Source: Cenococcum geophilum (lineage: Eukaryota). From it: a stretch of DNA of 64,000 bases. The stretch covers positions 12,586,001 to 12,650,000 of the forward strand of contig CP158635.1 in the NCBI GenBank assembly GCA_050273025.1, given 5' to 3'. Shown here in pieces: positions 1,347 to 44,319 of this stretch. Both the position numbers and the translations under genes were made by a program. Position 1 is the stretch's first letter, and the number at the start of each line of letters is the position of its first letter. Below the pieces are notes generated by a model. That model had not been told where the DNA came from. It made no database searches and worked only from the letters and a program-made list of their open reading frames with translations.

Positions 1347-1940
1347 TATTACGGACCTTATATTAGCAGTAGTATAACTACTAAGAAGATATAGTACAGA
1401 AGGCGCTAGAACTAATTAAGTTATAAAATAAGGGGTAGCTAAGTTATATAGCTAGTTATATTATAAGTTTAGAATATAAAAATATAGAAATATGGGAATA
1501 TAAAAATATAGGAATATGGGAATATAGAAATATAGGAATATGGAAATATAGAAATATAGAAATATAGGAATATAAAAATATAGGAATATGGGAATATAAA
1601 AATATAGGAATATGGAAATATAGAAATATAGGAATATAGGAATATAAAAATATAGGAATATGGGAATATAGAAATATAGGAATATGGGAATATAGAAATA
1701 TAGGATATACTAACATACAGCGTACTTAGTATATTTCGTAGACGTAGTATTAAATACTTAAAGGACTATAGTCCCTACCTAGATAGTTCTCTTCTTTATA
1801 GTAAATCTTAGAATATAATTAGAGTTACTCTATTAGATAACCTACTCTACTAGTTATATTTATATTGTTAACTATTATATACCTATATACCTAGCCTATT
1901 AATAAGTCTACCGTGGTATTTCCTATAAGGCTTTATTCTA
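1347..1940 (+). repeat. 5' LTR of A1 with divergent U3
   Basis: Starts tattacgg (RIP form of TGTTACGG). The 3' half (aaggactatagtccctacctagatagttc...cctataaggct) matches the A2 and A3 LTRs; the 5' half differs. Confidence 0.75.
1472..1706. repeat. 8-bp minisatellite (RRAATATR, e.g. GGAATATA) in the A1 LTR
   Basis: About 29 tandem units of ggaatata/gaaatata/ggaatatg. It produces the spurious ORF 1456..1716. Confidence 0.9.
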
Positions 1941-3645
1941 TATTTACTACTAAGGTTATAGTAAAGGAAGTTAAATAACATGCTGCCTAAAGCACTAGTT
2001 ATAACGCCATTTATAGTAGTAACTACTTTAGGATTTAGAGGAGATACTAGCATGCGGGACAATAACTTAGCAGTAGTTATAATAAATTAGCTTAGGAGTG
2101 TTATAGAGTAGAATAACGCTAATAATATAGTACTGCTATAGTAGCTCTAGGATAAAAAAAAAGAAAGGATTAAGATACTATTAATTAAAAGATTCTTAGG
2201 AGAAAAGTATAAGCTTAAGGAATTCCTTGCGTAAATAAAATTGAAGATTTAATATAAAGGAACTAAACTAGTAAAATTAGTAGACTAAGTAGCGTATATA
2301 GGACTATTCTTAATAGGTAGGGCATTAAAGTAGTTTTAACCCTATTTAATAGAGATATAAGCTAATAGACTAGCAACTACTAACCTAGAAGTATAGTATA
2401 TATTTATAAGCTAAGAAGTATTCACTAGTAGACTTATATAAATATATAGAGACCTAAAATTAATAGTAACAGCTAAAGGGAAGCTATATTAACTTATATA
2501 GAAGGGGGTTAGCAATAAGACTATATAACGCAGTTCTAAATACTAATAGCGTAAACTATGTAGAGCTAAGGAGCGCTAATAGTATAGTATAGATAAGGTC
2601 TAAAGGCTAAGGTCTAGGCTATAATAATACTAATATATAACCTAAGCAATATAAGAGAACTAATTAAGTAAGCGATTAAGGTTAATAACCGGCTATATTA
2701 AAGTAAGAAGTTAAGTAGAATATAGATAGGACCAGTGCATATAAAGAAGATATAATAGATGTTTAAACTATAGTATAGCGCAGAGTTAAAAGACCTAAGT
2801 AGTATTAGAGAAGTAAGATAATAAAATAAAAATCTATAAAAATCTAAAGAACAAAAATTAAATAATTAAAGGTTTAAGAAGTAAAGGCTAAACCAGGGAT
2901 TTTAGTAATAGAAGACGTTTAGGCGGACTCTATAGCAAGAAAAGTAGTATAAAAAGAAAGCTTATAAAAATTGCGGAAAATAAGGTTATTTCGCTAAAGA
3001 CTATAAAGGTGGTTAAAATAACCACATAGTAAAGGGAACTAGACTAGTAGACAATATATATATATATAAAGGGACGATAATATACTACAAGAAACAAAAG
3101 AGTATTTAATTAGAAGTTTTGCGTTTTAATACAATAACATATACTAAGTTTATAAAGACGCTAAGTATAGCGTAAGCTATTAGCTATAAAAGCCTAAGTT
3201 AAAAGGACTCTAAAGCATAAAAGAGTTAGATAAAGATTAATATTAACTCTATAAACTAAATTAGGACTAAGATGGTATATTTAGCTAGTAGTTAGCAGAG
3301 AAAGTTTTTATATACCAGTTTTACCAAGTAATATAATCTAAGGATTAAGACGATTAGACTATTAGTAGCGACGATTTAAAAAAAAGGTAACTTACTAGGA
3401 GTACGTAGATCTTAAGGACATAATAATAAAGGTAGAGGTTAAATCTACTATAGAGAAGGGATTTGCAATAGGCGTTAAAACTCTATTAGATACGGTATCT
3501 ATCGCTTTATAAGACGTAAGAAAAGTAGGATAGTAAGTTACTTTGGCATTTAATAAAGGTAAAAGGCCAAAACTCTAAGATTCTTAAGACGAGATAGCTT
3601 AAGAGCCTATAACGGACGATAACTAATAAAAAAGAGTACTAGCTT

Positions 3646-9622: not shown

Positions 9623-11089
9623 AGCTTAGTTTAAAGACAAATAAATAAGTATAGGATAATAATTCCCCATACTAGAAGTATAAGAGAGACTTTTATAGAA
9701 AAGAGATAAGAACCTAAATTTAGAGTAGGTATTAATCCCTATAGAAATAGAGGATATAGCTAAAGGGCGAGGCCGCTGAGTAGATAGAAAGACTTAATAT
9801 TCTTAAAATAAGATAAGAGAAATATAAGATTCTATAGAAAGGATAAGGACGTAAATAAGCTATTTAAGAAGATAGATTAAAGCAGAAAATAAGAAAGATT
9901 TAAAATCTAATATAGGGATAGAAACTCCAGGAAAAGGTAAATAAAGTTTTTAGACTTAGGGTTAAGTAAGTAATACTAAAATTATAAAGTTTAAGGATCT
10001 AAAGAATTTGATAGCTAGATATAAACTAGAAAAAGACTAAATATAATTTAAGAATTAAATTAAAGCATGGCAAGAATAAAGGGGTTACTATAGATTAAAA
10101 ATGCTGAGTAGATTAAGGGACAAAACGCCTTTATATAAAATTATTAATAGGCCTAAGGCAGGCACGCTAAGAGTAAAGTGACTTAAAGAACTAGAATAAG
10201 AAGAGGACTTAGAGATTTTAACTAGATTGAAAAAACGGCATTTAAAGGGCTATTATAATATAGCAATAATAAGATACTTTCTTATAGATATATCGTATAC
10301 GCTTATAAAATTGTACTAAAAGTGATCTAGATAGCGATATAACAACAAATAGGAAGATTTCTATATATAGCTAAATAAAAAAGTTATCTAAGACTAAATA
10401 ATTGCTAAAAGACGCATAAGTTATATTAAAGGAGCATTAATTATAATGTTTAGAAATCCAGAAGAAAGATTATAGGACTAGAGAAGTAAAAGGTAAATTT
10501 TAGTGCTAGTAAATAAGGAACTAATATATAGATTAACTAGATAGAGGTTTAAACTTAAGAATAAAAATAAACTAAGAGTTAACCTAAAGCGTCTAGTATA
10601 TAATATATTGGCATAGATCGCATATATAGATAACTAGTATAGTATATACTAAGCACTAAAGATAAAGAATAAGAAGTACCCTATAAATATATATTAGGCG
10701 CTAAATAAACAATAATATAGGAATGCTAAGTATATATATAGCTAGCATCTAGTAGAAATCTAAGGGAAAGGAGAATTAACCCTTTAACTAGGAAGATTTC
10801 TTATAGAAGAATACTTAGGTGGATAATAGTAGTAGGAATGCCTAGAGAATACGTGTCTATAGTATATTAAGGAAAAGAAATAAACTAAGTATTAATTAAA
10901 AACGGACTAAATATAAATAGGATCTAGTAGCTAATAGTTAGGAAAATAAGAGGCCTATAGGACCTAAGGGAGCTAGTAGTAGAGCCTTAGACCCTTAAAG
11001 GAATTTAAAAACAATACCTAAATTTATAAGTTAAGTAGTAAGATTAATAGTTTAAAGTACTAATAGACAATAGAGCAATAAGGAACTAT

Positions 11090-12174
11090 CATTGGCAAAA
11101 TATTATCCTTTATTCATGGCCTTAATGGCCGGTCGTTAGCGCAATTGGCGCGTAGTTAAGGGCATTTAGCAACTCGACCGACTAGCCTATGTCGTGTTTT
11201 TTGACACGCAGCCTACGCGTAGCCTATGCGCAACCTACTGTTATAGAGTAAGTATAAGTAACAATAATATATAACGAGGTAGATATTATTAAGCTATATA
11301 CATAAACTATATAATAAGGTCAAGACGTTGCGTAAGGAAAAAAGGTAGGAAAACGGGAAGAAAGAATATACTACTTATTTATATCTACCTACCTATTAGC
11401 ATCTTTTTGCCTATCTATATTTGCTTACCAATCTATATTTGCTTACCAATCTATATTTACTTACCTATCTATATTTACTTACCTATCTATATTTACCTAT
11501 TTATCTATATTTGCCTACCTATCTATACTACCTTAATTTAATTAATTAATTAAATCGTTTATAGTATTTACTGGCTAGTTGTTATTGTCTAGCTCTAGCA
11601 ACGGTCGTCTAGTTCTAGTAATAGTCGTCTAGTTTTAGCGACGATTGTTTAGTTCTGGCAACGATTGTCTAGCGGTAGCGACAGTTATCTAGTTCTAGTA
11701 ATAGTCCTCTACTAGCTACCGTTTTAATACTTCCCTAAGCAAAAAGGATATAAAAAAGGAAGGGTAAAAAAGGGCAAAGGTATATATAGAGACTATTGGA
11801 AATATAGCGGGGACCTAATATAGAGCTTTATATAGAGCTTTATATAAGGCTTTATATAGAGCCTTTAAGTAACAAAACTATATAAGATTGTATAAGATTA
11901 TATATAACAGTTAAATATATTATAAGCTAGTATACTATAGGCTAAGAAAACAGTAAAAGTTAATTTAGGTAATTGGCATATAACTTAAAAATAATATATT
12001 ATATTACCTAAATTACATATTAAGGAATATATAGTTAACTTTTAAAGTTATTAAATTGGCTAACTACGTATTATTTAACCTTTAAATATATTAAGTTGGT
12101 TAATTGTGTATTAATACGCGAAACGCGCTAAATAAAGTCTACTTAAATCTTAGCCTGCGAATATTTCCCCAATA
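11090..12174. mobile_element. Non-autonomous TIR element (1085 bp) with internal minisatellites, inserted in the A1 protease
   Basis: Ends cattggcaaaatatt and aatatttccccaata form a 15-bp imperfect TIR. Removing the insert and one AT restores aactatatattattagcag, collinear with the uninterrupted copies near 16686 and 27430-27448. Confidence 0.75.
11410..11866. repeat. Three tandem arrays: 18-mer (ctatatttgcttaccaat) ~6x, 20-mer (ctagttctagcaacgattgt) ~6x, 12-mer (tatagagcttta) ~4x
   Basis: Read directly at ~11410-11526, ~11589-11705 and ~11818-11866. Confidence 0.85.
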
Positions 12175-12401
12175 ATATATTATTAGCAGTAGTTAAAAGG
12201 ATAGGACTACTATATAGGTAGAAAAGGCACCTATATCCGTTAGTTATAATTCTAGAAAATCTAATAGCCTATAGAGAAGGTATTATTAACCTTAAAATAG
12301 GACCTATTTAGATAACTATTAAAGGGAGACTAATTAAAATGTCTTTTAATATCCTACTATTAGGACGAGATAAGGCAGTACTAGAAATACTTTAGTTATA
12401 G

Positions 12402-12820
12402 TATTACGGACGCTTTAAGTACAATGTTATAACTACTAGGAGAGGAGTTAGAAGAAGCTAGTTGGTTAATATAGGTATAGTCTAGGATGGAACCGGTTAA
12501 GCTATATAACGAGGAATAGTAGCTAAGGTTATATAATATGCTATATATTAAACAAGAGGAACGGGAGGAACTTACGTACCTTATGTACCACGCGTATATT
12601 ATATATAAGGAGGATTTCTTAGAAGTACGGTTGTGTATTTAAAGGACTATAGTCCCTACTTAGATAGTTCTCTCCTTATAGTAAATCTTAAAATATAATT
12701 AGAGTTAATCTATTAGGCAACTACTCCACTAATTATTATTACGTTATTAACTTCTTATTTACCTATATACCCGGCCTATTAATAAGTCTACTATAGTTCC
12801 TACTACAAGGCTTCGTTATA
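12402..12820 (+). repeat. 5' LTR of A2
   Basis: tattacgg...cgttata termini. Matches the reverse complement of 30658-31077 except in the central U3 repeat zone. Confidence 0.88.
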
Positions 12821-13018
12821 TATTTACTACTAAGGTTACAGTATTAATAAAGTTAAATAATATGCCACTAAAAGTAGTAGCTACAATAGCGTTAACGGCA
12901 GCGACTACCTTAGGATTAGGTAATGATACTAGTATAGTAAACACTAACTCTTAGCTAGTTACCGTTAGATAGCTATAGGAAATAGTTAATTAATTAATAG
13001 ATAATAATAGGATATTTA

Positions 13019-13872
13019 TTATTATTGATTCTTATTTAAAGTCCGATGCGGTCCTCTTCTGAGTCCATGCAGACTATATATTGCCGTTGAGTTTTAGGTA
13101 CAAAAAACCTCCAAGGGAGACGTAAGAGGTAATACAGCATGAACCCCTCCAGGTAGCATGCCCGTACTACGTCAACGGGAGGAAAAATACCGTTAGGTCA
13201 CCGTTCTGGGACGTGGTCCCTAATTGCCTATCTTGCCCTGTCTACCTTTCGTACCATGCTTCCATTTAAGTTTATAAATACCGTAAAGTTAAGTTGTCCT
13301 ACCCTTGCTCCTTCTTACTGCCCTGTACGTGTATCTCGCCTATAGTCCTCCTGCTCCTCCTACCGCCCCATCCTTATATATCCCTTATTCCTTTCTATCT
13401 TCCTACTCTAGGCCTCTACCTAGCTTCCTAGTGGCTTCGTCCCTAGTTGGACGGGTTACATACCTTCTGCGGTTAAGGCCCAAAGATCGCTGGGTGGATT
13501 AAGGTGTAAAGGGGTAGAGGCGAGTGGAAGAGGCTCAGGCCTTCCGCCTGCGAGGTACGGTTTAGCTGCGTATAGGTGCCGTACGGTATGTATACTGTTA
13601 TACCGCATAAGAAAAAGAGGGTCGCTGCCGTATATAAATGCCGTGGTTCGAGTGTGCTCGACGTGTACGTGAAATCGTGGTAGTCGTGTTCGTAGCCCTC
13701 CGCTGGGGCTCACCCTCCCAGCAGGAAAAAAAATTTCGCACCACCACCACGACGTCGCAGCGCCGACGCTGCGCTGTCGTACGAACGTCTCTGCGTTGGC
13801 TCTGCTGAATCCGAAGACCAGCAGGTTCGTAGCCGTCACCTCGTACAGGTGCAGAGTCCGGTTTCAACGGCC
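13019..13872 (-). mobile_element. SINE-like non-autonomous retroposon with a 5' HDV-like ribozyme and a LINE-like 3' tail
   Basis: Perfect 15-bp TSD ataataggatattta at 13004-13018 and 13873-13887. (TAA)n tail on the minus strand. GC-rich island interrupting A2 gag. No credible ORF. Confidence 0.9.
13789..13872 (-). ncRNA. HDV-like (nested double pseudoknot) self-cleaving ribozyme
   Basis: Minus strand: GGCCGUU(P1) GAAACCGGA CUCUGC(P2) ACC(P3) UGUACGA(L3) GGU(P3') GACGGCU(P1') AC(P1.1') GAAC CUGCUGGUC UUCG GAUUCAGCAG(P4) AGCCAAC(J4/2) GCAGAG(P2'). G1-U wobble at the predicted cleavage site. Confidence 0.88.
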
Positions 13873-16800
13873 ATAATAGGATATTTAAAGAAAGAATTAA
13901 TGGGATTGGAGTAGCTAAGGTTAAGTTACCCTTAATTAAGCGATTCTTAGGGTAGAAGTTAAAACTTAAAGGATTCCTTATATAAATGCACTTTAAGGTT
14001 ATATAGGAAGAAGTTAAACTAGGAACGCCTATAGATTAAGTCGCTTATATAGGATTATTCTTAATAGGAAGAGTACTTAAGTGGTTTAAGCCTTACCTTA
14101 TAGAGGTATAGGAGTATAGTATAACAACCACTAACTAGGAGGTACGATATATATTCTTAAGTTAGAACGGGTTTATAAAATGCTTAACGCAGATAATTAG
14201 GGACCTAAAGGCAACTATAACGGTAGAATAAAAACTTTAAAACCTAGTATAAAGAACTTTAGCAATTAAATATATAATATAGTTTTAAATATTAGTAATA
14301 TAAGTTAAATGGAATAATAAGGCGCTTATAGCATAGTATAAATAGGGACTTATAGTAAAAGTCTAAGATATAATTATCCTAATAGAAGATACGGATACTC
14401 TTAAGGATTTAATTAATTAAGTAATTAAGATTAATAATAGGATCTACCAAAGAGAGTAGACTAAGAAGGGTTAGGATAGGGTTTTATAGTTATATAAGGC
14501 GCAAGGCATATAATAATAAAGTTAAAGTTAGAAACTATAGTATGGCGTAGAGCTAATAGACCTAAGTAGTATTAAAGAAAATAGAAAATGGAATAAACAA
14601 CTATAGAAACCTAGAGGATAAGAATTAAGTAATTAAAGGTCTAAGGAGCAGAGGCTAAATTAAGGATCTTAATAGTAGAAGACGTTTAGGCGGACTTTAT
14701 AGTAAGAAAAATGGTTTAAAGAAGGAGTTTATATAAATTACGGAAAATAGGGTTATTATATTAAAGACTATAGAAGTAGTTAGAGTTACTACGTAGTAAA
14801 AGGAATGAGACTAGTAGAAGATATATATATATAAAGGGATAATAGTATACTGCGAGGAACAAAAGAATGTTTAACTAAAAGCTTTACGTTTTGTTATAAT
14901 AACATATACTAAATTTATAAGGACGCTAAGTATGGCGTAAGCTATTAGCTATAGGAGCTAAAATTATTAAAGTTTAAAGGAACTAACAAACTAGTTTATA
15001 GATTGGATATTAAGGACGATAAGTAAAATATAAGTAAAATATTTAGTAATAATAAGGTAATAAAGGCAGCTTACTAGGAGTATATAGATTTTAGAGATAT
15101 TATATAAGAGGTAAAGAATAATTCTACTATAAAATAGGGAATATTAGTAGGGATTAAGACCCCACTAGATATAATATCTATCGCTTTATAAGACGTAAGA
15201 GAAGTAGGATAGCGAACTACTTTAGTACTTAATAAAGGCAAAAGGCTATAAGCTTAAGATTCTTAAGATAGGATATAGGACGCTTAAGGTTTCTAAGACG
15301 GGATAAGATAAGCTTAAGGACCTATAATAGACGATAACCAATAGAGCAAAGTAATAACTTAGTTTAGTAATATATAAATAAGCTTAGGACGAAGTTTCCT
15401 AAAGGTATAAGACTATTAAGACAAGATAAGTAAGATTTAAGACTCTTAAAACGAGATAAGAATACTAAAGAAGCCTAGTTAGACTAAGGCTAGAGCTAAG
15501 CTTAAGACAGAAGCAAGCTTAGGATTAAGAATTCTATAGGACTAAGATTTTTAGATATAAATAAAGACTATTAAATAAACTAAGATTAAGAAGTAAGAAG
15601 ACTTTAAGGATCTACTTATAAGGCGAAAACCAAAAGAAACTAAAGAGGAATTTAGATAGAGAATCCTTATATAGTAAGAACAAAAACTAGATTAAAGGAC
15701 TAGTATACTAGGTTGTATAAGGGATAGAGCACCTATATAAAGAATTACTAATAGGCCTAGGGCAGGTATGCTAAGAGCTAAGTGGCTTACTAAACTAGAA
15801 AATAAAGAGGATTTAGGAATTCTAACTAGGTTTAAGGAATAATATATAAAAGGCTATTATAATATAGTAATAAAAAGATACTTCCTTACGGATAAGCCGT
15901 ATATACTCTAATAGCTGTACTAAAAGTGATATAGGTAATAATATAACGATAAGTAAGAAGATTTCTATATATAGTTGGATGAAAGAGTTATCTAGGACTA
16001 CCCTATTATAGAGAAGGCTATAACTTATATTAAGAGAGCCTTAATTATAACATTAAAGGATCTAAAGGAATAATTAGAGGACTAAAGAAGTAAGAAATAT
16101 ATCTTAGTACTTATAAACAAAGTTATAACATTTAGATTAACACGGTAGAGGTTTAAACTTAAAGATAAAAATAAGTTAAGAGTTAACCTAAAGCACCTAG
16201 TATATTATATATTGGCATAGATTATATATAGATAATATATACAAAATATATAAAAACCTAAAAGAGAAAAATCGGAAGTACCCTATAAGGATATATTAGG
16301 CGCCAGATAAGTAATAGTATAAAAATATTAAGTATATGCATAGATGGCATCTAGTAGAAGTTTAGGAGTTAGGAGACTTAATACTTTAACTAAAAAGATT
16401 TCTTATAGAAGAATAGTTAGATAGATAATAGTAGTAGGAATACCTAGAGAATACGTGTCTATAGTATATAGAGGACAAAAAGCGAACTAGGTATTAGCTA
16501 AAGAGTAAGCTAAGTATATAAGGATTAAACAGCTAATAGTTAGGAAAAGTAAAGGCCTATGGGACTAAAGGGAACTAGTAGTAAAGCCTTAGACCTTTAA
16601 AGGAATTTAAGGACAATACCTAAATTTATAAGTTAATTAGTAAAATTAGCAGTTTAAAGTACTAATAGATAGTAAAGTAATGCGGAACTATATCTTACTA
16701 GTAGTAGTAAAAAAAATAAGATTACCTTATAGATAGAAGGAATAACCTTATTTATTAGTTATAATTTTAGGAGATCTAATAGCCTATAGAGGAGGTATTA

Positions 16801-18381
16801 TTAACCTTAAAATAGGACCTATTTAAATAACTATTAAAGGGAGACAAGTTAAGATGTCTTTTAATATCCTACAATTGGGATAGGATAAGGTAGTATTAGG
16901 CATACCTTGATTACAGGAATATAATTTAAAGATTAATTAAATTATAGGGTAGGTCGATATTAGAGATATATAATAACATAAAATATAATAATAGACTAAG
17001 TTAGTATAGTATTAAATCGGAGTAATATATAAAGAGACTAAGCGAGGCTTAAGTTATATACTAAAAAGATACTATAAGTGTGGCAAGAAACTATAGAGCC
17101 TAAAAAGTAAAAAGCTGGCAGATTATATAGTATAGGACTATAAAATAGAGTTAGAACTAGGAATAAGTCTAAAATTCTTTTTAACCTATAAGCTTACCTA
17201 AGAGGAGTTAAGAGCACTTAAAGAGATTACCTAAGAGAACTTATAAAAGGGATATATTAGACTATTATAGTTATTAGTAGGATATCTAGTATTGTTCGTA
17301 CTAAAGAAGAACGGAAAACTTAGGCTATATATTAACTATAGATAGTTAACATTACTTAAAAGAATAGGTATTCTTTACCCTTAATTAGCGAAATTTAGAA
17401 TTAGATAGATAATGCGTAAATCTTTATAAAGATAGATCTAAGATAGGCGTACTATTACATTAGAATTAAGAAAGGCAATAAATAGAAAGCAGCCTTTAGG
17501 TTAAAAGAAGGACTATATAAACTATTAGTAATGCAGTTTAGGTTAATAAATACACTAGTAACGTTTTAAAAACAAATTAATAGTGTATTAGGAGAACACC
17601 TTAATAAGTTTATTATAGTATACCTTAACGATATTATTATCTACTTAATAACTAAGGAAGAGTATAAAGAACACATTAAATAGGTCTTAAAGAGACTATA
17701 AAAAGAACAGATACTAGTAGTAATTAAAAAATATAAGTTCTTTATTAGGAAGACCGATTTTATTAAATTTATTATTAAACTAGGTTATATTAGTATAGAC
17801 CTAAAGAAGATTAAAGCTATAGTAAGTTAGTAAGAACTAGAGAATATAACGCAGTTAAGGTTATTTTTAGGGGGTTGCAACTACTATAGAAGGTTTATAG
17901 CATAGTAGTTAAAGAATATTAAACCATTTACTAGGCTTACTAAAAAGGAGGAACTATAGATATAGGGAAATAAATAAAAGAAGTTATTTAAGGAACTTAA
18001 GGAGTTATTTATCTAAGAACTAATTTTTAAAATCTATTAACTAATATTAGAAGCGGTTATAGAAACGGATATATTAGACTTTATATTAGGAGTATACTTA
18101 CTATAGAAATATTATAATATATAGCACCTAATAATATACTATAGTTAAAAGATAACACTACTAGAACTAAACTATAACATCTATAATAAGGAGGTATTAG
18201 GTATAATTATAGTATTTAAAGAATAGGAAAACTATTTATAATTAAGATAGATTATAAAAACCTAGTGGAGTTCCTAATAATAAAAGAACTTAATTATAGA
18301 TAGGTTAGATAGGTAGAGATACTTATAGAATACTATTTTATAATTTAGTATACTAAAGGAATAGAAAATATAAGGGTAAAC

Positions 18382-33632: not shown

Positions 33633-36600
33633 TTACCTAATAAAAAGAAAAGAATTAGAAGTACCCAATAAGGATATATTAGGCGCTAGATAAGTAATAG
33701 TATAGAAATACAAAGTATATACACAGCTAGCATTTAGTAAAAGTTTAGGAGTTAAATAACTTAACGCTTTAACTAGGAAGATTCCTTATAGAAGAATACT
33801 TAAATAAATAATAATAGTAGGAGTGCCTAGAGAATACGTGTCTATAGTATATTAAGGATAAGAAATAAACTAGGTATTAGCTAAAGAGTAAGCTAAGTAT
33901 ATAAGGATCTAGCAGCTAATAATTAGGAAAAGTGAAGGCCTATAGAACTAAAGGGAGCTAGTAGTAGAGCCTTAAACCCTTAAAGGAATTTAAGGACAAC
34001 ACTTAAATTTACGAGTTAATTAGTAAAATTAACAGTTAAAAGTATTAATAGATAGTAGAGTAAAAAGGATGGGGCTACTATATAGGCAAAAGAAGTACCT
34101 TTATTTATTAGTTACGATTTTAGGAGATCTAATAGCCTATAGAGAAGGCATTATTAATCTTAAAACAGGACCTATTTAGATAACCATTAAAGGAAGATTA
34201 ATTAAGATATCTTTTAATATCCTACTATTAGGATGGGATGAGGTAGTATTATAAATACCTTAGTTATAGGAATATAATCTAAAAATCGACTAGGTTATAA
34301 TTTAGGTTAATATTAAGAATACTTAACAACGTAAAAGGCGTATAGCTACTAAGTTAGTATAGTACTAGGTTAGAGCAACCTATAAAGAAATTAAAAAGGG
34401 GTTAAGTTATATACTAAAGAGATACTATAAGTATGGCAAGAAACTATAAAGCCTAGAAAGTAAAAAGCTATTAAAGTATATAGCATAGGACTATAAAATA
34501 GAATTAGAACTAGGAATAAGTCTAAAGTTCTTTCTAATCTACAAGCTAACTAAAGAAGAGTTAAGAGCACTTAAGGAGTTTATCTAGGAAAACCTACGAA
34601 AAGGATATATTAAACTATTATAATTATTAATAGGTTATCCGGTACTATTTATACTAAAGAAAAATAGAAAGCTTAGATTATATATTACTATAGGTAGTTA
34701 AACAGCATTACTAGAAAGGATAGATATCTTTTACCCTTAATTAGTAAAATCTAAGATAGGATAGGTAATACGCAAATCTTTATAAAGATAGATCTAAGAT
34801 AGGCGTACTATTAAATTAGGATTAAGGAAGGCAATAAATAAAAAGCAGCCTTTAGGCTAAAGGAAGGACTATACAAACTATTAGTTATGCAATTTAAACT
34901 TATAAATGCATTAGTAATATTCTAAAAGCGAATTAATAATGTATTAGGAGAATACTTAGATAAATTTGTTATAGTATACCTTTATAGTATTATTATCTAC
35001 TTAATAAGTAAGAAAGAGCACGGAGAACATATTAAATAGGTTTTAAAGAGACTATAAGAAGAACAAATACTAGTAGTAATTGAGAAATACGAGTTCTTTA
35101 TAAAGAAGACTAATTTTATTAAATTTATTATTAAACTAGGTTATATTAATACAGACTTAAAGAAAATAGAAACTATAGTAAGTTGGTAAGAACTAGAGAA
35201 TATCATATAGTTAAGGTTATTTTTAGGGGTTTATAACTACTACAAAAGGTTTATAATATAGTGGTTAAAGAATATTAAGCCATTTACAAGGCTTACAAAG
35301 AAAGAGAAACTATAGGTATAGGGAAATAAGTAAAGGAAGCTATTTTAAGAACTTAAGGAGTTATTTACCTAGAAATTAATCCTTAAAATCTACTAACTAG
35401 GCTTAGAGACGGTTATAGAAATGGATATATTAGACTTTATACTAGGAGTATATTTGCTATAGAAGTATAAGAATGCATAGCACCTAGTAGCATACTATAA
35501 TTAGAAGATAATACTACCGGAACTAAACTATAACATATACAATAAGGAGTTATTAGGTGTGGTTATAGTATTTAGGAAATAGAGAGCATTTTTATAAGGT
35601 ATAAAGAAACTATTTATAGTTAAAATAGATTATAAGAACCTAATAGGGTTTTTAATAATAAAAGAACTTAACCGGAGATAAGTTAAATAGGCAGAGATGC
35701 TTATAGAATACTATTTTAAGATTTAGCATTTTAGAGGAATAGAGAATGCGAGAGCTAACGCGCTAAGTAGAAAAGCCAAACCACAGAATAATAAGAAGCT
35801 ATTAAGAGCAATGCTACGTAAAGATAAGGATATATTAATTAGATGTAATTACCTAAAGCTAGTAGCAACTTATAAATTACTAAAAAGTAATTAGACTAAA
35901 AGAATTTAAGAAGCGTAAAAAGAGAATATAGACTTAGAGTAGTATGAAAATAGAGAAGCAATATATATACTAAGAAGTATTATAAAAGAATTTATAAAGG
36001 AATTCTATTAGGGAATAATATAGGGATATAATAGAGCTACAGGCTTAATATTAAGACTTTAGGAGGATTATATTGTTAATAAAATCTAGGGCTTAGTAAG
36101 AGAAGTTATAAAGAAGTATCTAGATTGCTAAAGAAATAAACTAACGAGGTATAAACTATATAGAAAGCTATAGCCTATTAAAATACTGGAAAGACTATAG
36201 GAAGTTATATTATAGGACTTTTTTTATAAAGTTACTGAAATTAAAGGATCCTATTACCGGATAGGAATATAATATAATCCTTATAATAGTAAATAAGTTA
36301 ACTAAATAGGGCTACTTTATAGCATATATAGAAGAAATCTTAGTGGGGGATATCGCTAAAATCTATATAAAAGAAGTATTCGTAAGACATAGAGCACTAA
36401 GTGAGATTATATTAGACAAAGATTTAAGATTTATAGTAGTATTTTAGGAGGTATTTTTAGCGGAATAAGGGGCTCGCGTAGTAATATTAATAGTATATTA
36501 TCCATAAACGGATAGATAGATAGAAAGATTAAACTAGACACTAGAGCAGTATCTAAAGCAGTATGTTAATTATATATAGAATAATTAAGTATTTTTATTA

Positions 36601-37823: not shown

Positions 37824-39888
37824 ATAATTTATTGCTTAACGTCCGATTTAAATCCCTATTGGGCCCATGTGGACTACTCCTTAGGTATATATAAGGAGAA
37901 AACTCTATTTAAGAAAACCCCATAATCTATCTCCCCGCCTTTTAGGACTCGCCTATAAGGCGCCTACAAGTTACCTATAGTGCTCCTACTACCTTACTTT
38001 TTAACCTCTTTAGGAACTACTGCTACTGCAATAAGCCTACGGACGCGCTAGTATTATAAACTTTACTTTACTACTATAGAGTTATTAGGGGGCGCTCGTT
38101 GCTTACCCCCCCGCCCTTTATTACTATTTCCTTTATAACCCAGAACTAGTTTAGTATATTTTAGCTAATAAGCTACTAGGTAACCGCCTTAAGGCCTTTT
38201 TATATTATGAGTAGTGTCTTATAGTTCTCTATACCAGCTACTAAAAGTATTACTTCTTAGTTAGTGCGTAAGGGGCATAATAGTATTATATATTTTAGTG
38301 TCTGTCTTCGCCAGCTATATTTATATCTTAGGCTACCTACTAAAACACCTACCCAGTAGAGCTAGTCTTTTAGTCCTATTATTCCTGTTCTTAAGAGTGT
38401 TGCTATTATATTTTCTACCTTTATTAGGCCTTCTTAGAGCCCTAAAGTGTTTACGCCCTATAGCGTTAACTATGCTATAGCTTAGGTTCCTCTTACCTTA
38501 GTTAGCCTCTATACCTTTAACTCCTATATACCTTTTTAGCGTTAGTTTAGCTAGTATTATATTGCGGTAGATAGTTTCCCAGTGTTCTTTTATGCTCTAC
38601 TTTAGCTCCTTTCTCTCTCTTACTATTATCTTTACTAGCCTCTTATACGTCTCCCTTCCTCCTCTATATAGGCCTAGGCCCTAAAGCAGTACTATTTTTC
38701 TTCTGCTTTCTTTACCTATTTCTTTAATATATCTTCCCTACTTTAGGGTTATTAGTTTATTCTCCTATAAGGCGCCCTAGGGTCCCTCCATAGTTTATTT
38801 AGGCGTATCTTAATATACTTTATAACGTTAGAGTTACGTTTCTTTTACGCCCTTTATATTGCAGCGGCTTTAATATATAGTTATAGGGGGGGAATATTAG
38901 CTTCCTTCTTAAGCAGTACTGTGGCCGTTCGCTTATATCCGCCTATTATACTCTAAAGGCAGGCTATTTAGACCTTTTAAAGTGGTTTAAGGAGCGATTT
39001 AGGGGGGCCTTTCTTAGATTCTCTAATGGCCTAAATACTAGACTTATACGTTATAGTTGGCCGGACGACTGCTATATATAGTAGGCGTAACCTCTAAAAG
39101 CATAGACCCTATATAGGGTTAACGATCCTAGATAATATAATATATTATACTTAGCCCTTACGGGCCGCTTGTGTTATATATACACTCTACTAGAGCTTAC
39201 TGTCTACCTATACTCCTAATACTTTTAGGCCTTAAACTGGTTAACCCCTAAAGCCTTAGATATAAATTATATACTAAAGATCTACAGATTAGTTACGTTT
39301 TCTTATAAAATAGATTAGCTGGTATTTCTCTGGTAAGAATTAGACTCTATATTGTCTTATTTATTCTATATAGGTATTATAAGCTTTCTCTAGTGTTTTA
39401 CAATTCTCTACGGCTATTAGCCCGTATATAATTAGGTTTATATTATTAACAAAGCCTATTCCCTAAGTCGCCCCTTCCTTAAAGAAGTTAAGCAGGTTGC
39501 TTATAAAGAAAAGGAAAAGTATAGGTAAGAGGGGTGATCTCTATAGTATTCCTATTGTAACTATAATAGGGGGGCTTTAGTATCCGCTAAAGACTAATAT
39601 TTTTTTTTTTAACCTATAAACCTTTAAATAAATTATATAATCTATTCTTGTCAGAAATTGGCGTTAAGGGTGCTGACTAAGCTCTGTACGCGAACTCTGT
39701 ATACAATCTACATAGACATTAACCGCATCTACTGCATCACGAATCAATCAATATTCATCGTCTGCGTCATCTCTATCATCAATTAAACCCTCAAGAGACC
39801 TCCGCTATGACCTTATAACCTTATAATTCCAACAGGTTATAAGCCTGGGTAGCAACACCTCTCCTAACTCAAAAAATCGACGCTCCAA

Positions 39889-42800
39889 ATGACCTCCTCT
39901 ACCTCAACCTTAACGACACCTACGTACGATCACAAGGCAGGTAAAATCGTCATTTTCAATAGAGACAACTATGCAGACTGGGAGCGCACCTGCAAGGCAG
40001 CCCTAATCATGTCAAAAGGATGGGATTTCGTCACTAGTACAGAGGACCCAAATTAAGTTAATTCAGCTAACGGAAGAAGAAGACAAGGGGAGGCAAACAA
40101 GATCATCTACAATTCAATAGGAGACGACCGTTAGGAAGAGATGCGTGCGATAATAAAGGCGTACAATATTTAAGGAATGTGGGAAGGAATAAAGAAGTTC
40201 AATAAGGCCAACAACAAGGTCTATATCTCTAGACTTCGCAGGGAGTTCTACAGCACTACATTCGACCCTACAAAAATACGAATCATCAAGTTCCTTCGTA
40301 TACTCAATCGATTCAAGATCAATCTAGCCTCGACACCTCAAGCACTTACCAACGACAATATCAAAGAGCAGCTTCTCTTGGCCCTCTTAAGCGATATCAC
40401 ATAGCAGAATGCGAAGACCTAGTACCTACGAGACAAACAAGACCTTAAGAGCTGCATTACCCTTCTTCAGGAGTAAGAGACTGCTCTCCCTACACAAGTA
40501 CAAAATGCAGCACTTACATACGAGAGGAAAGACGAACCTAGGGGAAAAAGGGGAAACTAAGGTCGAGGTCGAACAAGGGCCAGAGGTCGTGCTAGTAGAT
40601 TCGATTATTCCTCATCGCGTCATCGCCATAGCTCGTCATCTCAAGTAAGTAAAGAGCCAAGACAACCAGAAAGAGATAAGTGCAGAGCATATTATCAGAA
40701 AGGTCACTACCAGAAAGACTATCCCCTACTCAACCAATTCCGATTTAATAACGCTAGAAAGACAGATTAAGGTGCTCCTAAGGCAGAGGAAGTAGGAAAT
40801 ATAGCAATAGCAGAAGACAAATTCAACAGCGATTCAATCTACCTTAACCCTAACCCTAAACATGCTATACTTACAACAACGTCTCTAGCTTAGGCTCTCA
40901 ACTTAGGTGCAACTAAGCACTTCACTAGTAACCAATTAGACCTAACACATTTAAAGAGATGGAATACGCCTTAATAGGTCCGTACTACAAATAGGATCGT
41001 TGTCCTTACTATAGGATATAGCCAAGCTTAAATTAGTACCCTAAAGCTAAAAGACATCTAGCTTATACCTTTGTTTAAGACAATTAAGCTAATCTCAGTA
41101 AGGACTCTCACTTAGGAAGGCTACTCGATTACCTTTAATATAGACAATTAAGCTACTAGCAAGCATAAATTAGGTGCGACATTTAAGGCTATTATAAAGA
41201 ACAACCTCTATATACTACAAGAGCATTAGAAAGCACTTAATGCGATAGCGGAAGCATACAATTTATAACCAAATCTTAACAAAACAGATACTAAGCTATA
41301 GCACCGCCAAACTAGACATACAAATTACAGCGACCTATTCAAGCTACAGCACTCCTCACTAGGCATAAAGCTTAAGAAGAGACCAGTACCAGTCGGCAAG
41401 AGCACATACAAAGCTTATCTAGCAGGGAAGATGCGAGAAATACTAAGTAAGAAGACAACCAGGCGCAAAAAGGTACCTAGTTAAGGACTATACCTAGATA
41501 CTACGGGACAAATTAGTATATTAACTAGAGGTTACAACTACTACCTTCTAGCCCTAGATAACGCCACACGCTATACTTAGGTCATCCCCCTTAAAACCCT
41601 CTAAACTAAAGAGGTACTACTATATATTAAAGAGATCATCGTAAGGGTAGAGAGATTTACTAGCAATAGAGCTGTCTGGATTCAAGCGGATAATAAAAAG
41701 GGGGAGTTCGGCCGCAGACTTTAAGACGAATTAATATCTCAGGGTATTAATTTTAAACCTTACCCGCCATACAAGCACTTATATAATGGCGTAATTAAGC
41801 GCGCAATCTACATAGTCAACTATAAAACAAAGTCACTGCTATTTCAAGGAAATATACCAGTAGAGCTCTAGTACTATATAGTCGAACATACTGTCTAGAT
41901 TAAGAATCAAATACCGACCTTAGCACTTCCATTTAACAACAAGCACAGTAGTGCTATTATACCCTACAAGGCATATACCTATTAAGTCCCTAACCTTAAG
42001 AATCTAGTTATTTTTAGGTGTTATACCAACCCAATTAATACACTTAAGAAACACCCTAGGAAGTACAATTTAAAGATAAAACCTAACTACACTTTCATAG
42101 GGTTAAAAGGGAGTAGTCAATTTAAGATAATAAACCTATATACGCAAGCAATTAAGCTCTTTAGAGATGCTAAAGTAAATAAGTATAGGTTCCCTTATAG
42201 AGCATATTAGGTGTATACTATAAGTCAAGCTATAAAACACGGTAACTAAGTAGGCCGCTCTAATTAAGTGGGAAGCCTAGGTTAAGATTAAGCGGGACGC
42301 TTAAATCACGCTATAAGCCAAGCTCTAAACCGACCTAGACCTCCCCCTACTACCTTAAACACGCCAATAGAGACTCCAGTTACAAAAACTAAGAGTAGGC
42401 CAGATGGTAACCAAGTAGGCCGCTCAAGCTAAGTAGGAAGCCCAGGTTAAGACCAAGTAGGCCGCTTAAATCAAATAGGAAGCCCAGGTTAAGATTAAGT
42501 GGGACGCTTAAATCTACAAGGTGATATAAAGGGTGGGACGCCCGTACGAAGTATATTAATACACATTCCTTATACGCAGAGAATAAGGTCTAGAAGGTTA
42601 CCGCAAATAAGGGTTTTTAATAATACGGTAGTTTAGTTAGTAATAGCTATAAAAGCTGTCCACCTAAAAGCTAAGAATACTACCTCTATAAGAGCACCTA
42701 TAGCACCTTTTAATACTATTAAGCTAGATTAGGCCTTAAGGGAGGACGCTCCTAGCTAGATAAAAGCTATCTTTAAAGAATTCCTCTTACTTAAGAGGAT

Positions 42801-44319
42801 GCACACCTATACTATTATAAGGGGGAGAGTACTAGAAGGAAGGTCATTACTTCTAAGTAAGCTAGTTCTAAAGCACAAGTATAACGTTAAAGGAGAAGTA
42901 ATTCGCAAGAAGGTAAGACTATGCATTTAGGGAGACAAGCAGACCCCCAACATTAACTATTTTAAAACATTTACGTCTATTGTATAATACGACACCTTTA
43001 GGTTTCTAATGGCAAAGGTAGCAGCTAAGGACCTTAAGCTTAACTATATCAACGTTAAGACTGCATTCTTAAACCCGCCGTTATAAGAACAGATTTATAT
43101 GCAGATTCCTAACCTATTAAGAGACTTCAAACCTAACCTTAAGGGGGTAAAAGACGTCTACTTAAAGCTAAATAAGTCACTTTACGGCCTAAAGCAGGCA
43201 CCGAGAGAATGGTTTTAGATAATTAAGAAGTTCTTTAAGAACATAGGTTTAAAAGCAGCTAAAGCTAACCCCAATCTCTTTATAGAAAATAAAGTATATA
43301 TCTTACTATTCGTTAACGATATACTAATCGCAGGAAAGCGCCGATACCTTAATATCATAAAGACAAGAATCTTAAGAGAATGGAGATGCAAAGACCTAGG
43401 TCCTATAAAAGTATTTATAGGCTTCCAAATTAATTAAGATCGTACAAACCAAACCCTTAAGCTACATCAGACAATATATACTAAGAAGCTACTCAAACGG
43501 CTAAAAATGGATAACTGTAATCCGGCTAAGCTACTAATACCAGCTAGTACTGTTCTAAAACCTAATATTAAAAGTCTCCTTAAGTACAATAACGCGACGG
43601 TATACCAATAGATCATTGGTTCTACAATCTACCTCTTAAACTACACGCGTCCTAATACCAGTTATACTATCAGTTAGCTAGCTAGGTTCATAGCAGCACT
43701 AGAAAAATCGCATTACCGTTTAAGCAAGCAGCTACTACAATATCTAAACGGCACTCTCAAAACTGGAATTACCTTCTTAAATTAAAAGATTCACCTTCCT
43801 CTATACAAGCTTACGTTAGCTAACCTACCTACTAACTACAGTATCTTTACCAACGCCACGTAGGGAACAGAACACGATCAGATATCATTCCAGGGTATAG
43901 CAGTTATACGCTATAGGGGAGCAGTAATCTAGATGGCTTAAAGACAGAAGTTAACGGCATTAAGTTCAATAGAAGCAGAGATTATAGCAGCGTCAGAAGG
44001 AGCAAGGTTAGCAGTATAGCTTAAGAAGCTAACAAGAGATCTAGGGAAGAAAGACAACAACAACAACAACAACCCTTTTGTCCCTACGCTGTATTGCGAC
44101 AATAAGGGTACAGTAGACCTTTCATACAACACAAAACACCACCAAAAAGCCAAGCATATCGAGACTCGATACCTCTTCGTACAAAATAACATGGTTTAGC
44201 AAGGTTAACTAGAAGTGGTATATATACCAGGTAAAGATCAACCTGGAGATATGCTTATAAAACAGCTACTAATTAACCAATTTACAAAGCACTGTGTAAC
44301 GCTAGGAATCGGTAGCTGA
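39889..44319 (+). pseudogene. pol: copia 2 gag-pol pseudogene
   Basis: ATG at 39889. Knuckle at ~40680-40725, restored WALDSGATKH (~40890) and WHRRTGH (~41300). KSLYGLKQAPREW (~43174), LYCDNKG and KAKHIETRY read directly; restored FVDD. Ends TGA at 44317-44319. Confidence 0.92.
42238..42545 (+). repeat. In-frame 18-bp tandem repeats in the IN-RT linker of copia 2
   Basis: Recurrent (c/t)aagt(g/a)gg(a/c)(c/a)gc units in two clusters (42240-42305, 42405-42512). Confidence 0.7.

Follow-up and report, generated by a model that had tools for sequence, protein, structure and literature searches.

An 84-nt module resembling HDV-like self-cleaving ribozymes at the 5' end of a non-coding, non-autonomous fungal retroelement

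Self-cleaving ribozymes of the HDV-like type are described at the head of R2, of L1Tc/NARTc and of other non-LTR retroelements (PMC6765202, PMC3185411, PMC5786205, PMC3414825), and in this 5' position they have so far been documented in animals and trypanosomatids. Six LINE clades are listed as having 5' ribozymes, namely R1, R2, R4, RTE and Ingi as well as LOA (PMC5786205), and a review describes metazoan LINEs and SINEs as using either hammerhead or HDV-like ribozymes (PMC6765202). As presented in PMC4908430, an HDV-like ribozyme is a nested double pseudoknot whose strands follow each other in the order P1-J1/2-P2-P3-L3-P3'-P1'-P1.1-P4-J4/2-P2', and cleavage takes place at the first nucleotide of P1. 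P3 is given as 3 bp and P1.1 as 1–2 bp in PMC3185411.

The stretch of fungal DNA analysed here, which we call the window, is 64,000 nt long. It contains an insertion of 854 nt on the minus strand, running from 13872 to 13019, which was compared with the systems described above. On the basis of sequence comparisons we consider it very likely (a probability of about 0.85) that the 84 nt at 13872–13789 are an HDV-like self-cleaving ribozyme, and that this ribozyme heads a non-coding, non-autonomous non-LTR retroelement. The features of the locus are collected in Table 1. Positions within the proposed ribozyme are numbered on the minus strand as idx = 13873 − position, so that the first base of the insertion, at 13872, is G1.

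Table 1. Coordinates of the element, of the duplications that flank it and of the predicted parts of its ribozyme module
Feature	Position	Strand	Remarks
Target-site duplication, 5' side of element	13873..13887		TAAATATCCTATTAT on the minus-strand reading; the 15 letters fit either side of the joint
HDV-like ribozyme module (predicted), 84 nt	13789..13872	-	All helices fit; G1 = 13872
P1 5' strand GGCCGUU, idx 1–7	13866..13872	-	idx 7 is C in most copies, which makes the pair C7-G36 and not U7-G36
J1/2, 9 nt, idx 8–16	13857..13865	-	idx 12 is U, A or C, depending on the subfamily
P2 5' strand CUCUGC, idx 17–22	13851..13856	-	Predicted to pair with idx 79–84
P3 ACC/GGU (idx 23–25/33–35) around 7-nt L3 UGUACGA (idx 26–32)	13838..13850	-	L3 positions 2–3 predicted to enter P1.1
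P1 3' strand GACGGCU, idx 36–42	13831..13837	-	Predicted 7 bp with idx 1–7; G1-U42 at the base
P1.1 3' partners A43 and C44	13829..13830	-	Predicted pairs G27-C44 and U28-A43
P4 hairpin, idx 49–57 with 62–71, UUCG loop, bulged U65, 9 bp	13802..13824	-	Variable peripheral helix
J4/2 AGCCAAC, idx 72–78	13795..13801	-	C74 (13799) is the candidate catalytic cytosine
P2 3' strand GCAGAG, idx 79–84	13789..13794	-	Predicted to pair with idx 17–22
Non-coding body of 'family 2' (the window's family)	13075..13788	-	No relation to the body of family 1, the larger family; T8 run at 13726–13733
3' region common with family 1, ~56 nt, short AAT-type tail at its end	13019..13074	-	Presumed recognition site of the partner reverse transcriptase
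Target-site duplication, 3' side of element	13004..13018		Second copy of TAAATATCCTATTAT, 15 bp

The initial annotation had placed G1 directly against a target-site duplication and taken it as the exact 5' end of the element. This is borne out by the finding of the same 15-bp sequence on both sides of the insertion; if the duplication is counted as 15 bp, the 3' end of the element falls at 13019, giving the length of 854 nt. Contigs from one DNA run and from two runs labelled as RNA join 13003 to 13873 and skip 13004–13872, with the same 15 letters ambiguous, and the repeat that flanks the insertion has a diverged paralogue near 2100, which is uninterrupted at the corresponding site. From the two copies of the duplication, the 13003/13873 joint and the uninterrupted paralogue we therefore conclude that the element extends from 13872 to 13019. 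No second copy was found within the 64-kb window, either in a 42-mer search that allowed 3 mismatches, with a repeat finder or by sensitive blastn.

The insertion region has a G+C content of ~50%, compared with ~30% for the surrounding DNA. There are only two stop-free frames of at least 110 amino acids in the window, and both are artefacts of this GC-rich stretch. The element holds no meaningful reading frame, the longest being a spurious one of 127 amino acids, and ARAGORN identified no tRNA in it. We note that the surrounding 64 kb are gene-less and have a strong RIP-type dinucleotide bias (TpA/ApT 1.71; (CpA+TpG)/(ApC+GpT) 0.42), the second of these indices being 0.70 for the element itself. 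Copia-type fragments at 39868–40053 and 43219–43434 were the only Pfam matches among 41 stop-free frames of the window. A scan for bacterial-type promoters and terminators gave the same level as in shuffled sequences, and such signals are not relevant to a fungus.

In the window copy every pair in the proposed helices is standard or G-U, the strands follow the order expected for an HDV-like ribozyme, and all five pairings can form. The individual assignments made in the initial annotation, which comprised P1, P2, P3 with L3, P4, a P1.1 of GU/AC and J4/2, all fit on the minus strand. As in known HDV-like ribozymes, P3 consists of 3 bp, and P1.1, with 2 bp, lies within the described range; it is predicted to be weaker than two G-C pairs because it includes a U-A pair. 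Nested folding of the window copy recovers P2, P3 and P4, while P1 and P2 together are not drawable in a nested fold, and the nested minimum-free-energy fold uses alternative pairs. The two nested halves of the proposed structure have energies of −20.1 kcal/mol (P1+P3+P4) and −19.4 kcal/mol (P2+P3+P4).

The arrangement was also expressed as a structural descriptor, which consisted of a 7-bp P1 including the G-U pair, a P2 of at least 5 bp, a P3 of 3 bp, an L3 of the form U...CG., a 2-bp Watson–Crick P1.1, a P4 with 4 bp or more and a J4/2 containing CNAA. A descriptor search of this kind had been suggested in the initial annotation. On both strands of the window there is one start, at 13872 on the minus strand. 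When the element was shuffled 3000 times with its dinucleotides preserved (2,568,000 nt), no start appeared. A descriptor reduced to the helices gave 111 starts in the same shuffles, or ~4e-5 per base. These chance figures are nominal, because the descriptor was written with the candidate already seen; that the match falls on the insertion's first base does not depend on the descriptor. When both strands of 371,464 nt of related loci were searched with the full descriptor, it matched 97 family copies and nothing else, these being 97 of the 121 related loci among the matches listed.

The related loci come from a metagenome scan with the 26-nt core at idx 17–42, one ambiguous letter being included in the pattern. 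At least 121 loci carry this core. Because the pattern required idx 17–42, copies truncated past these positions lie outside the sample. At least 30 nt of upstream sequence are present for 118 of the loci, which together with the window form a set of 119 sequences. Among the matches listed, the upstream 30-mers are different in all 119 sequences and homology starts at G1: no position from −1 to −8 exceeds 0.28 bit of information, and the values are 1.7–2.0 bit from +1 onwards, with G at +1 in 116 of the 119. At positions −15 to −10 these listed sequences have A or T almost exclusively, a signature of the duplication's outer boundary.

Duplications were examined in the 50 loci that have at least 1100 nt of downstream sequence. 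Among the matches listed, 36 of these 50 have an exact duplication of 11–18 bp adjoining G1, mostly of 14 or 15 nt, and in those 36 loci the second copy lies 824–1032 nt downstream. In a control that used a word from 25 nt further upstream, no repeat was present in any of the 50. The elements end at the 3' side in short repeats of the TAC-, TAT-, TAA- or TC-type, again among the matches listed. Whole-element blastn detected no truncated copies in the flanks of the related loci, and one extra head fragment at the edge of one locus (L057). A degenerate pattern intended for distant relatives had no matches in genome contigs and none in viral contigs.

Conservation of the fold was analysed in an alignment of the window and 118 loci, which has 89 distinct rows. 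Locus L007 was dropped from it for its truncated ribozyme, and L034 and L102 were dropped since a contig end cuts their 5' end. In this alignment 98.5% of the cells are paired among the matches listed, compared with 27–45% when the partners are slid by 1–3 columns. The initial annotation had named scattered 5' ends and unconserved helices as the observations that would speak against it; with this level of pairing and with all 119 of the listed sequences starting at G1, neither was found.

P4 is the part of the structure that varies most freely. Three of its pairs are changed on both sides (GC 34, AU 7 and GU 7; GC 40, AU 25 and GU 18; GC 47, GU 40 and AU 2), and among the matches listed there are 62 distinct P4 segments, 14–29 nt in length, all of which are CUG...CAG hairpins. 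There is no two-sided change in P1, P2, P3 or P1.1, where the one-sided changes are mostly C-to-U wobbles of the kind that RIP-type decay would yield anyway. The absence of covariation in the core arises in part from the search pattern, which fixed idx 17–42. Covariation supports P4 only, and the predicted core fold rests on its fit. RNAalifold, which considers nested pairs only, recovered P2 and P3 and paired the 3' strand of P1 with J4/2 and not with idx 1–7; there is no covariation for either pairing.

The core itself is strongly conserved. All alignment cells of P3 and P1.1 are paired (100%), the sole variation being two G-U cells, and G1-U42 is present in 86 of the 89 distinct rows. Among the matches listed, GGCCGTC forms the 5' strand of P1 in 104 of 120 copies, the last letter of L3 is U in 115 of 120 and A in the other 5, the window included, the 3' side of P1.1 is AC in 118 of 120 and AT in 2, and J4/2 reads AGCCAAC in 106 of 118 copies. 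In 44 family-1 copies, divergence from the consensus is 3.2% in the 5' strand of P1, 1.1% in the 3' side of P1.1 and 1.4% in J4/2 with the 3' strand of P2, figures that refer to the positions left free by the search pattern and whose contrast with the rest of the element may be somewhat inflated by the selection of intact cores. The same 44 copies diverge by 8.4% in P4, 6.1% in J1/2, 9.6% in the next 100 nt and 12.0% in the body.

Comparison with the Rfam models of HDV-like ribozymes, which had also been suggested in the initial annotation, gave a divided result. The window copy had no matches at E values up to 10 when searched as 4 kb and then as 131 nt, and there were no Rfam matches of any kind in window positions 12000–16000. 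Three relatives, taken as 131-nt stretches, match RF02682 (HDV-F-prausnitzii) with 13.8, 17.8 and 14.6 bits (E 1.5, 0.18 and 1.0). These matches cover the whole of the model (1–74 of 74), with G1 as their exact starting point. RF01787 (drz-agam-1) is matched as well by two of the three relatives, over model positions 1–82 of 82. In the alignments P1, P3/L3 and the 3' strand of P1 are in the same register, and the GCCAA of J4/2 falls on the GCUAA of the models. The scores of the relatives, at 12.6–17.8 bits, are far below the gathering scores of 44 (RF02682) and 37 (RF01787), and we therefore take the matches as support for a likeness to these families and not for membership.

These results bear on what the head does. 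The HDV-like elements are all present and in order, which chance would produce less than once in 2.57 Mb as judged with the full descriptor, and at ~4e-5 per base with the helices alone; the Rfam matches of the relatives to two HDV-like models are in register and start at G1; and P4 behaves as a peripheral helix does, being a hairpin of variable length. For these reasons it seems improbable that the head is instead an internal promoter or a protein-binding structure (one bound, for example, by proteins of the partner LINE), with G1 as the transcription start and a fold that has no catalytic meaning. Such a function would account equally well for the uniform 5' end and the conserved head, and the lack of covariation in P1, P2 and P3 and the alternative pairing of the 3' strand of P1 with J4/2 also speak for it. 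The two functions are not mutually exclusive, and in L1Tc/NARTc the first 77 nt are described as serving both as promoter and as ribozyme (PMC3185411; PMC3383444).

The related loci fall into two families. Family 1, of ~1.0 kb, accounts for most loci, and the family of the window, of 0.83–0.85 kb, consists of the window, L019 and L059 among the matches listed. In blastn, similarity between the two families is confined to nt 1–88/89 and the last ~56 nt. As judged from these alignments the head is a portable module, carried by at least two families with unrelated bodies. One locus (L014) has a head of the window type on a family-1 body, and another (L007) has an internal deletion that breaks P4. 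No convincing reading frame was found in any body examined. Runs of T5–T8 are present well upstream of the 3' ends in all 7 copies checked. Termination by pol III occurs at T runs, and these internal runs therefore argue against transcription by pol III.

The element had been called SINE-like in the initial annotation, and the term holds loosely. The elements are short and non-coding, have target-site duplications (36 of 50 loci, among the matches listed) and possess a ~56-nt 3' region common to both families. The head of a classical SINE, derived from tRNA, 7SL or 5S RNA and containing an internal pol III promoter, is absent, and the T5–T8 runs are present. A more apt description, we suggest, is that of a non-LTR element which is non-autonomous and of the SIDE or 'bipartite non-autonomous LINE' kind. 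As regards a partner LINE, no autonomous element with either end was found in the related loci or the window, and blastn with the tail gave the expected element ends only.

The elements are abundant and transcribed. At least half of the sampled words of the element occur in 20 public runs from 14 studies, and 10 of the 20 are recorded as RNA, mostly as 'fungus metagenome' metatranscriptomes. In the reads or contigs of four runs the depth over the head (13825–13861) exceeds that over the body by a factor of 10 to 100. Most copies in these four runs have C at idx 7 (13866 A>G) and U at idx 32, and P4 has insertions and deletions. The tables of two of the runs (X1 and X2) hardly differ, and the two may represent a single data set. 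RNA runs also contain contigs that are identical to the window copy.

Raw stranded RNA reads from one labelled organism (X23) have a head depth of ~1431 in the orientation expected for the sense strand, against 127. Molecules end at 13872 (25), 13865 (29) and 13860 (628 of a depth of 1292), and 126 reads continue past 13872 into varied sequence. This distribution is consistent with a discrete end at G1 or close to it, accompanied by some molecules that are uncleaved or genomic. The ends are ambiguous, because clipping at the private letters of the window copy (idx 7 and 12) may produce the accumulations at 13865 and 13860, and reads that come from other copies cannot extend into the flank of this locus.

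A further possibility is that the ribozyme was active in the parent LINE and in past master copies, and that the window copy or the non-autonomous families carry a decayed relic that does not cleave. The window copy has minority letters at three positions, idx 7 (U, where most have C), idx 12 and idx 32, and has no Rfam match, the dinucleotide index of 0.70 for the element hints at some RIP-type decay, and other copies have changes that are clearly disabling, such as A at idx 5 in 4 of the 89 distinct rows. Against this reading, the helices of the window copy all still pair, the U-G at idx 7 being a wobble, and the A at idx 32 is common to a whole subfamily (5 of 120 copies, among the matches listed), members of which lie at other sites, so that it was present in a copy that retrotransposed. 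With the RNA runs also containing contigs identical to the window copy, we regard decay to a relic as very unlikely. A chance likeness between a GC-rich stretch and the HDV-like fold is effectively refuted, since, easily as short helices form in GC-rich DNA (the helices alone matched 111 times in 2.57 Mb of shuffles), the full descriptor matched no shuffle, and the match coincides exactly with the insertion's first base, in a module that is kept in at least 121 loci and is common to two otherwise unrelated families.

If the head is indeed an HDV-like ribozyme, the life cycle of the element can be proposed as follows. Transcription of the element would occur either as part of larger transcripts or from a pol II start close by, as is suggested by the lack of a pol III-type head and by the internal T-runs. 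The head would then form the nested double pseudoknot, and the fold predicts that the RNA would be cut directly 5' of G1. The processed RNA, with G1 as its first nucleotide, would be recognised through the common ~56-nt 3' region by the reverse transcriptase of a putative LINE, and target-primed reverse transcription would proceed to the very 5' end. The outcome is in line with full copying: among the matches listed, the sampled copies start at G1, have duplications and display the A/T-only signature at −15 to −10. With the initial annotation, we infer that self-cleavage out of a read-through transcript preceded target-primed reverse transcription.

A broader proposal can be put forward tentatively, and we would rate its prospects as slightly below even. 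The ~88-nt head and the ~56-nt tail may constitute a portable cassette that mobilises at least two unrelated bodies in a RIP-active fungus. The outcome would be a class of 'ribozyme-headed' SINE-like elements, in which the ribozyme replaces the pol III head and the element rides on read-through transcription, and the partner may be a fungal LINE outside the six clades in which 5' ribozymes are known.

Should cleavage be true, the mechanism would extend to fungi. The module would then be a compact natural ribozyme of 84 nt, with an unusual P1.1 of one G-C and one U-A pair and with many natural variants of P4, and it would offer a clean case of a ribozyme that serves as an exchangeable 5' module in non-autonomous elements. 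In addition, the head can serve in annotation to mark where, on the 5' side, the members of an abundant repeat family truly begin in RIP-degraded regions.

A literature search returned no report of an HDV-like ribozyme in a fungal retroelement, the structure-based surveys (Webb 2009, Ruminski 2011, Webb and Luptak 2011) being outside its reach, and the element is apparently the first fungal case of a known type of ribozyme-headed retroelement. Among the known sequence families, RF02682 and RF01787 agree in register with the fungal relatives (P1 from G1, P3/L3, the 3' strand of P1 and the GC.AA of J4/2), a resemblance that falls short of membership. The SINEs of schistosomes, as reviewed in PMC6765202, are similar in being short, non-autonomous and self-cleaving, and differ in their ribozyme, which is a hammerhead, and in the host group.

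The logic of the head module is that of L1Tc and NARTc of Trypanosoma cruzi and the L1Tc/ingi clade. In these elements the first ~77 nt (Pr77-L1TcRz) are described as an HDV-like ribozyme that cleaves at +1 (PMC3185411; PMC4035085), and according to PMC3185411 this head is nearly unchanged between the autonomous LINE and its non-coding partner, whereas the sequence downstream differs, as it does between the two fungal families. The trypanosome elements differ in belonging to another host kingdom and in their poly-A tails, and their Pr77 is also an internal promoter (PMC3185411). The bipartite non-autonomous LINEs of Kojima (2018, PMC5786205) have retained both the precise 5' end of a LINE and its 3' end, and a 5' ribozyme is there offered as the reason; no fungal example is mentioned in the part of that paper drawn on here. 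In the fungal case the head and tail are known from two non-autonomous families alone, and not from a parent LINE.

The remaining comparison is with two kinds of Drosophila element, the R2 SIDEs and the R2/R1 hybrid SIDEs (Eickbush and Eickbush 2012, PMC3414825). As described there, these are likewise non-autonomous elements in which a 5' HDV-like ribozyme sets the 5' end and the 3' end is that used by a partner reverse transcriptase, and the target-site duplications of the hybrid SIDEs, at 14 bp, are close to the 13–15 bp of the fungal elements. The SIDEs are site-specific in rRNA genes, are cut from a 28S co-transcript and are rare, whereas the fungal elements are dispersed at A/T-rich sites and abundant. 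Unlike the SIDEs, the fungal elements also have an unrelated non-coding body of 0.7–0.9 kb between head and tail, and they end in short repeats of the TAC-, TAT- or TAA-type.

The 88 or so nucleotides of head that the window's family shares with the larger family 1 appear able to move as a unit. One of the related metagenome loci, L014, is over its whole length a mosaic, in which a head of the window type is joined to a family-1 body (76% identity). The head is recognized as window-type by an L3 ending in A and by a P4 of the CUGCUG type. The mosaic suggests, on sequence grounds, that the head module has been exchanged between the families. A second rearranged copy, L007:308-402, has a shortened P4 fused to body sequence from farther downstream, the internal deletion having removed J4/2 and the 3' strand of P2.

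In the raw stranded RNA run X23, 96 reads diverge from the window at 13860 (idx 13, counting from G1 along the minus strand), and their upstream continuation is one fairly uniform sequence (agreement 0.86). These reads could derive from a 5'-truncated copy lying in an expressed locus, or from a variant of the head whose P1 strand differs.

In both families a stable GC-rich hairpin directly follows the 3' end of the ribozyme (13756-13788 of the window, minus strand; nt 85-130 of family 1), and is itself followed by a GTGGTGG-rich stretch and, farther along, by a complementary CCAC-rich stretch. This arrangement may insulate the ribozyme fold against downstream sequence, or it may belong to a larger 5' structure. 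Within the ribozyme, RNAalifold analysis of A2, the alignment of the window with 118 related loci, identified a conserved capacity of the P1 3' strand (GGCU, columns 40-43) to pair with AGCC of J4/2 (columns 80-83). This alternative helix, if formed, would keep the ribozyme in an inactive fold.

At the far edge of the target-site duplication, positions -15 to -10 from G1 form a hexamer that is nearly all A/T in 119 sequences (the window and 118 loci among the matches listed); at -12, for instance, G or C occurs in only two. On sequence evidence, this hexamer suggests that the putative partner endonuclease is selective about where it nicks.

The surrounding DNA (1-64000) is gene-less, AT-rich and repetitive, with a strong RIP-type bias over the window (TpA/ApT 1.71; (CpA+TpG)/(ApC+GpT) 0.42), and no stop-free frame of at least 110 aa was found in the 64 kb outside the GC-rich insertion. 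Its other repeats are listed in the table. The repeat that hosts the insertion is separate from the long three-copy family, and has a paralogue at approximately 2100-3200.

Other repeats identified in the window
Feature	Position	Strand	Details
Copia-type LTR retrotransposon fragment, Retrotran_gag_3	39868-40053	+	Pfam E 0.0016, under cut-off
Copia-type LTR retrotransposon fragment, RVT_2	43219-43434	+	Pfam E 7.6e-6, under cut-off
Tandem array, period 8 nt	1416-1753		About 28 overlapping 114-nt registers (repeat finder, family D1)
One long repeat family, three diverged copies	10100-12470, 15700-17640, 33640-35000		Identity 67-86%
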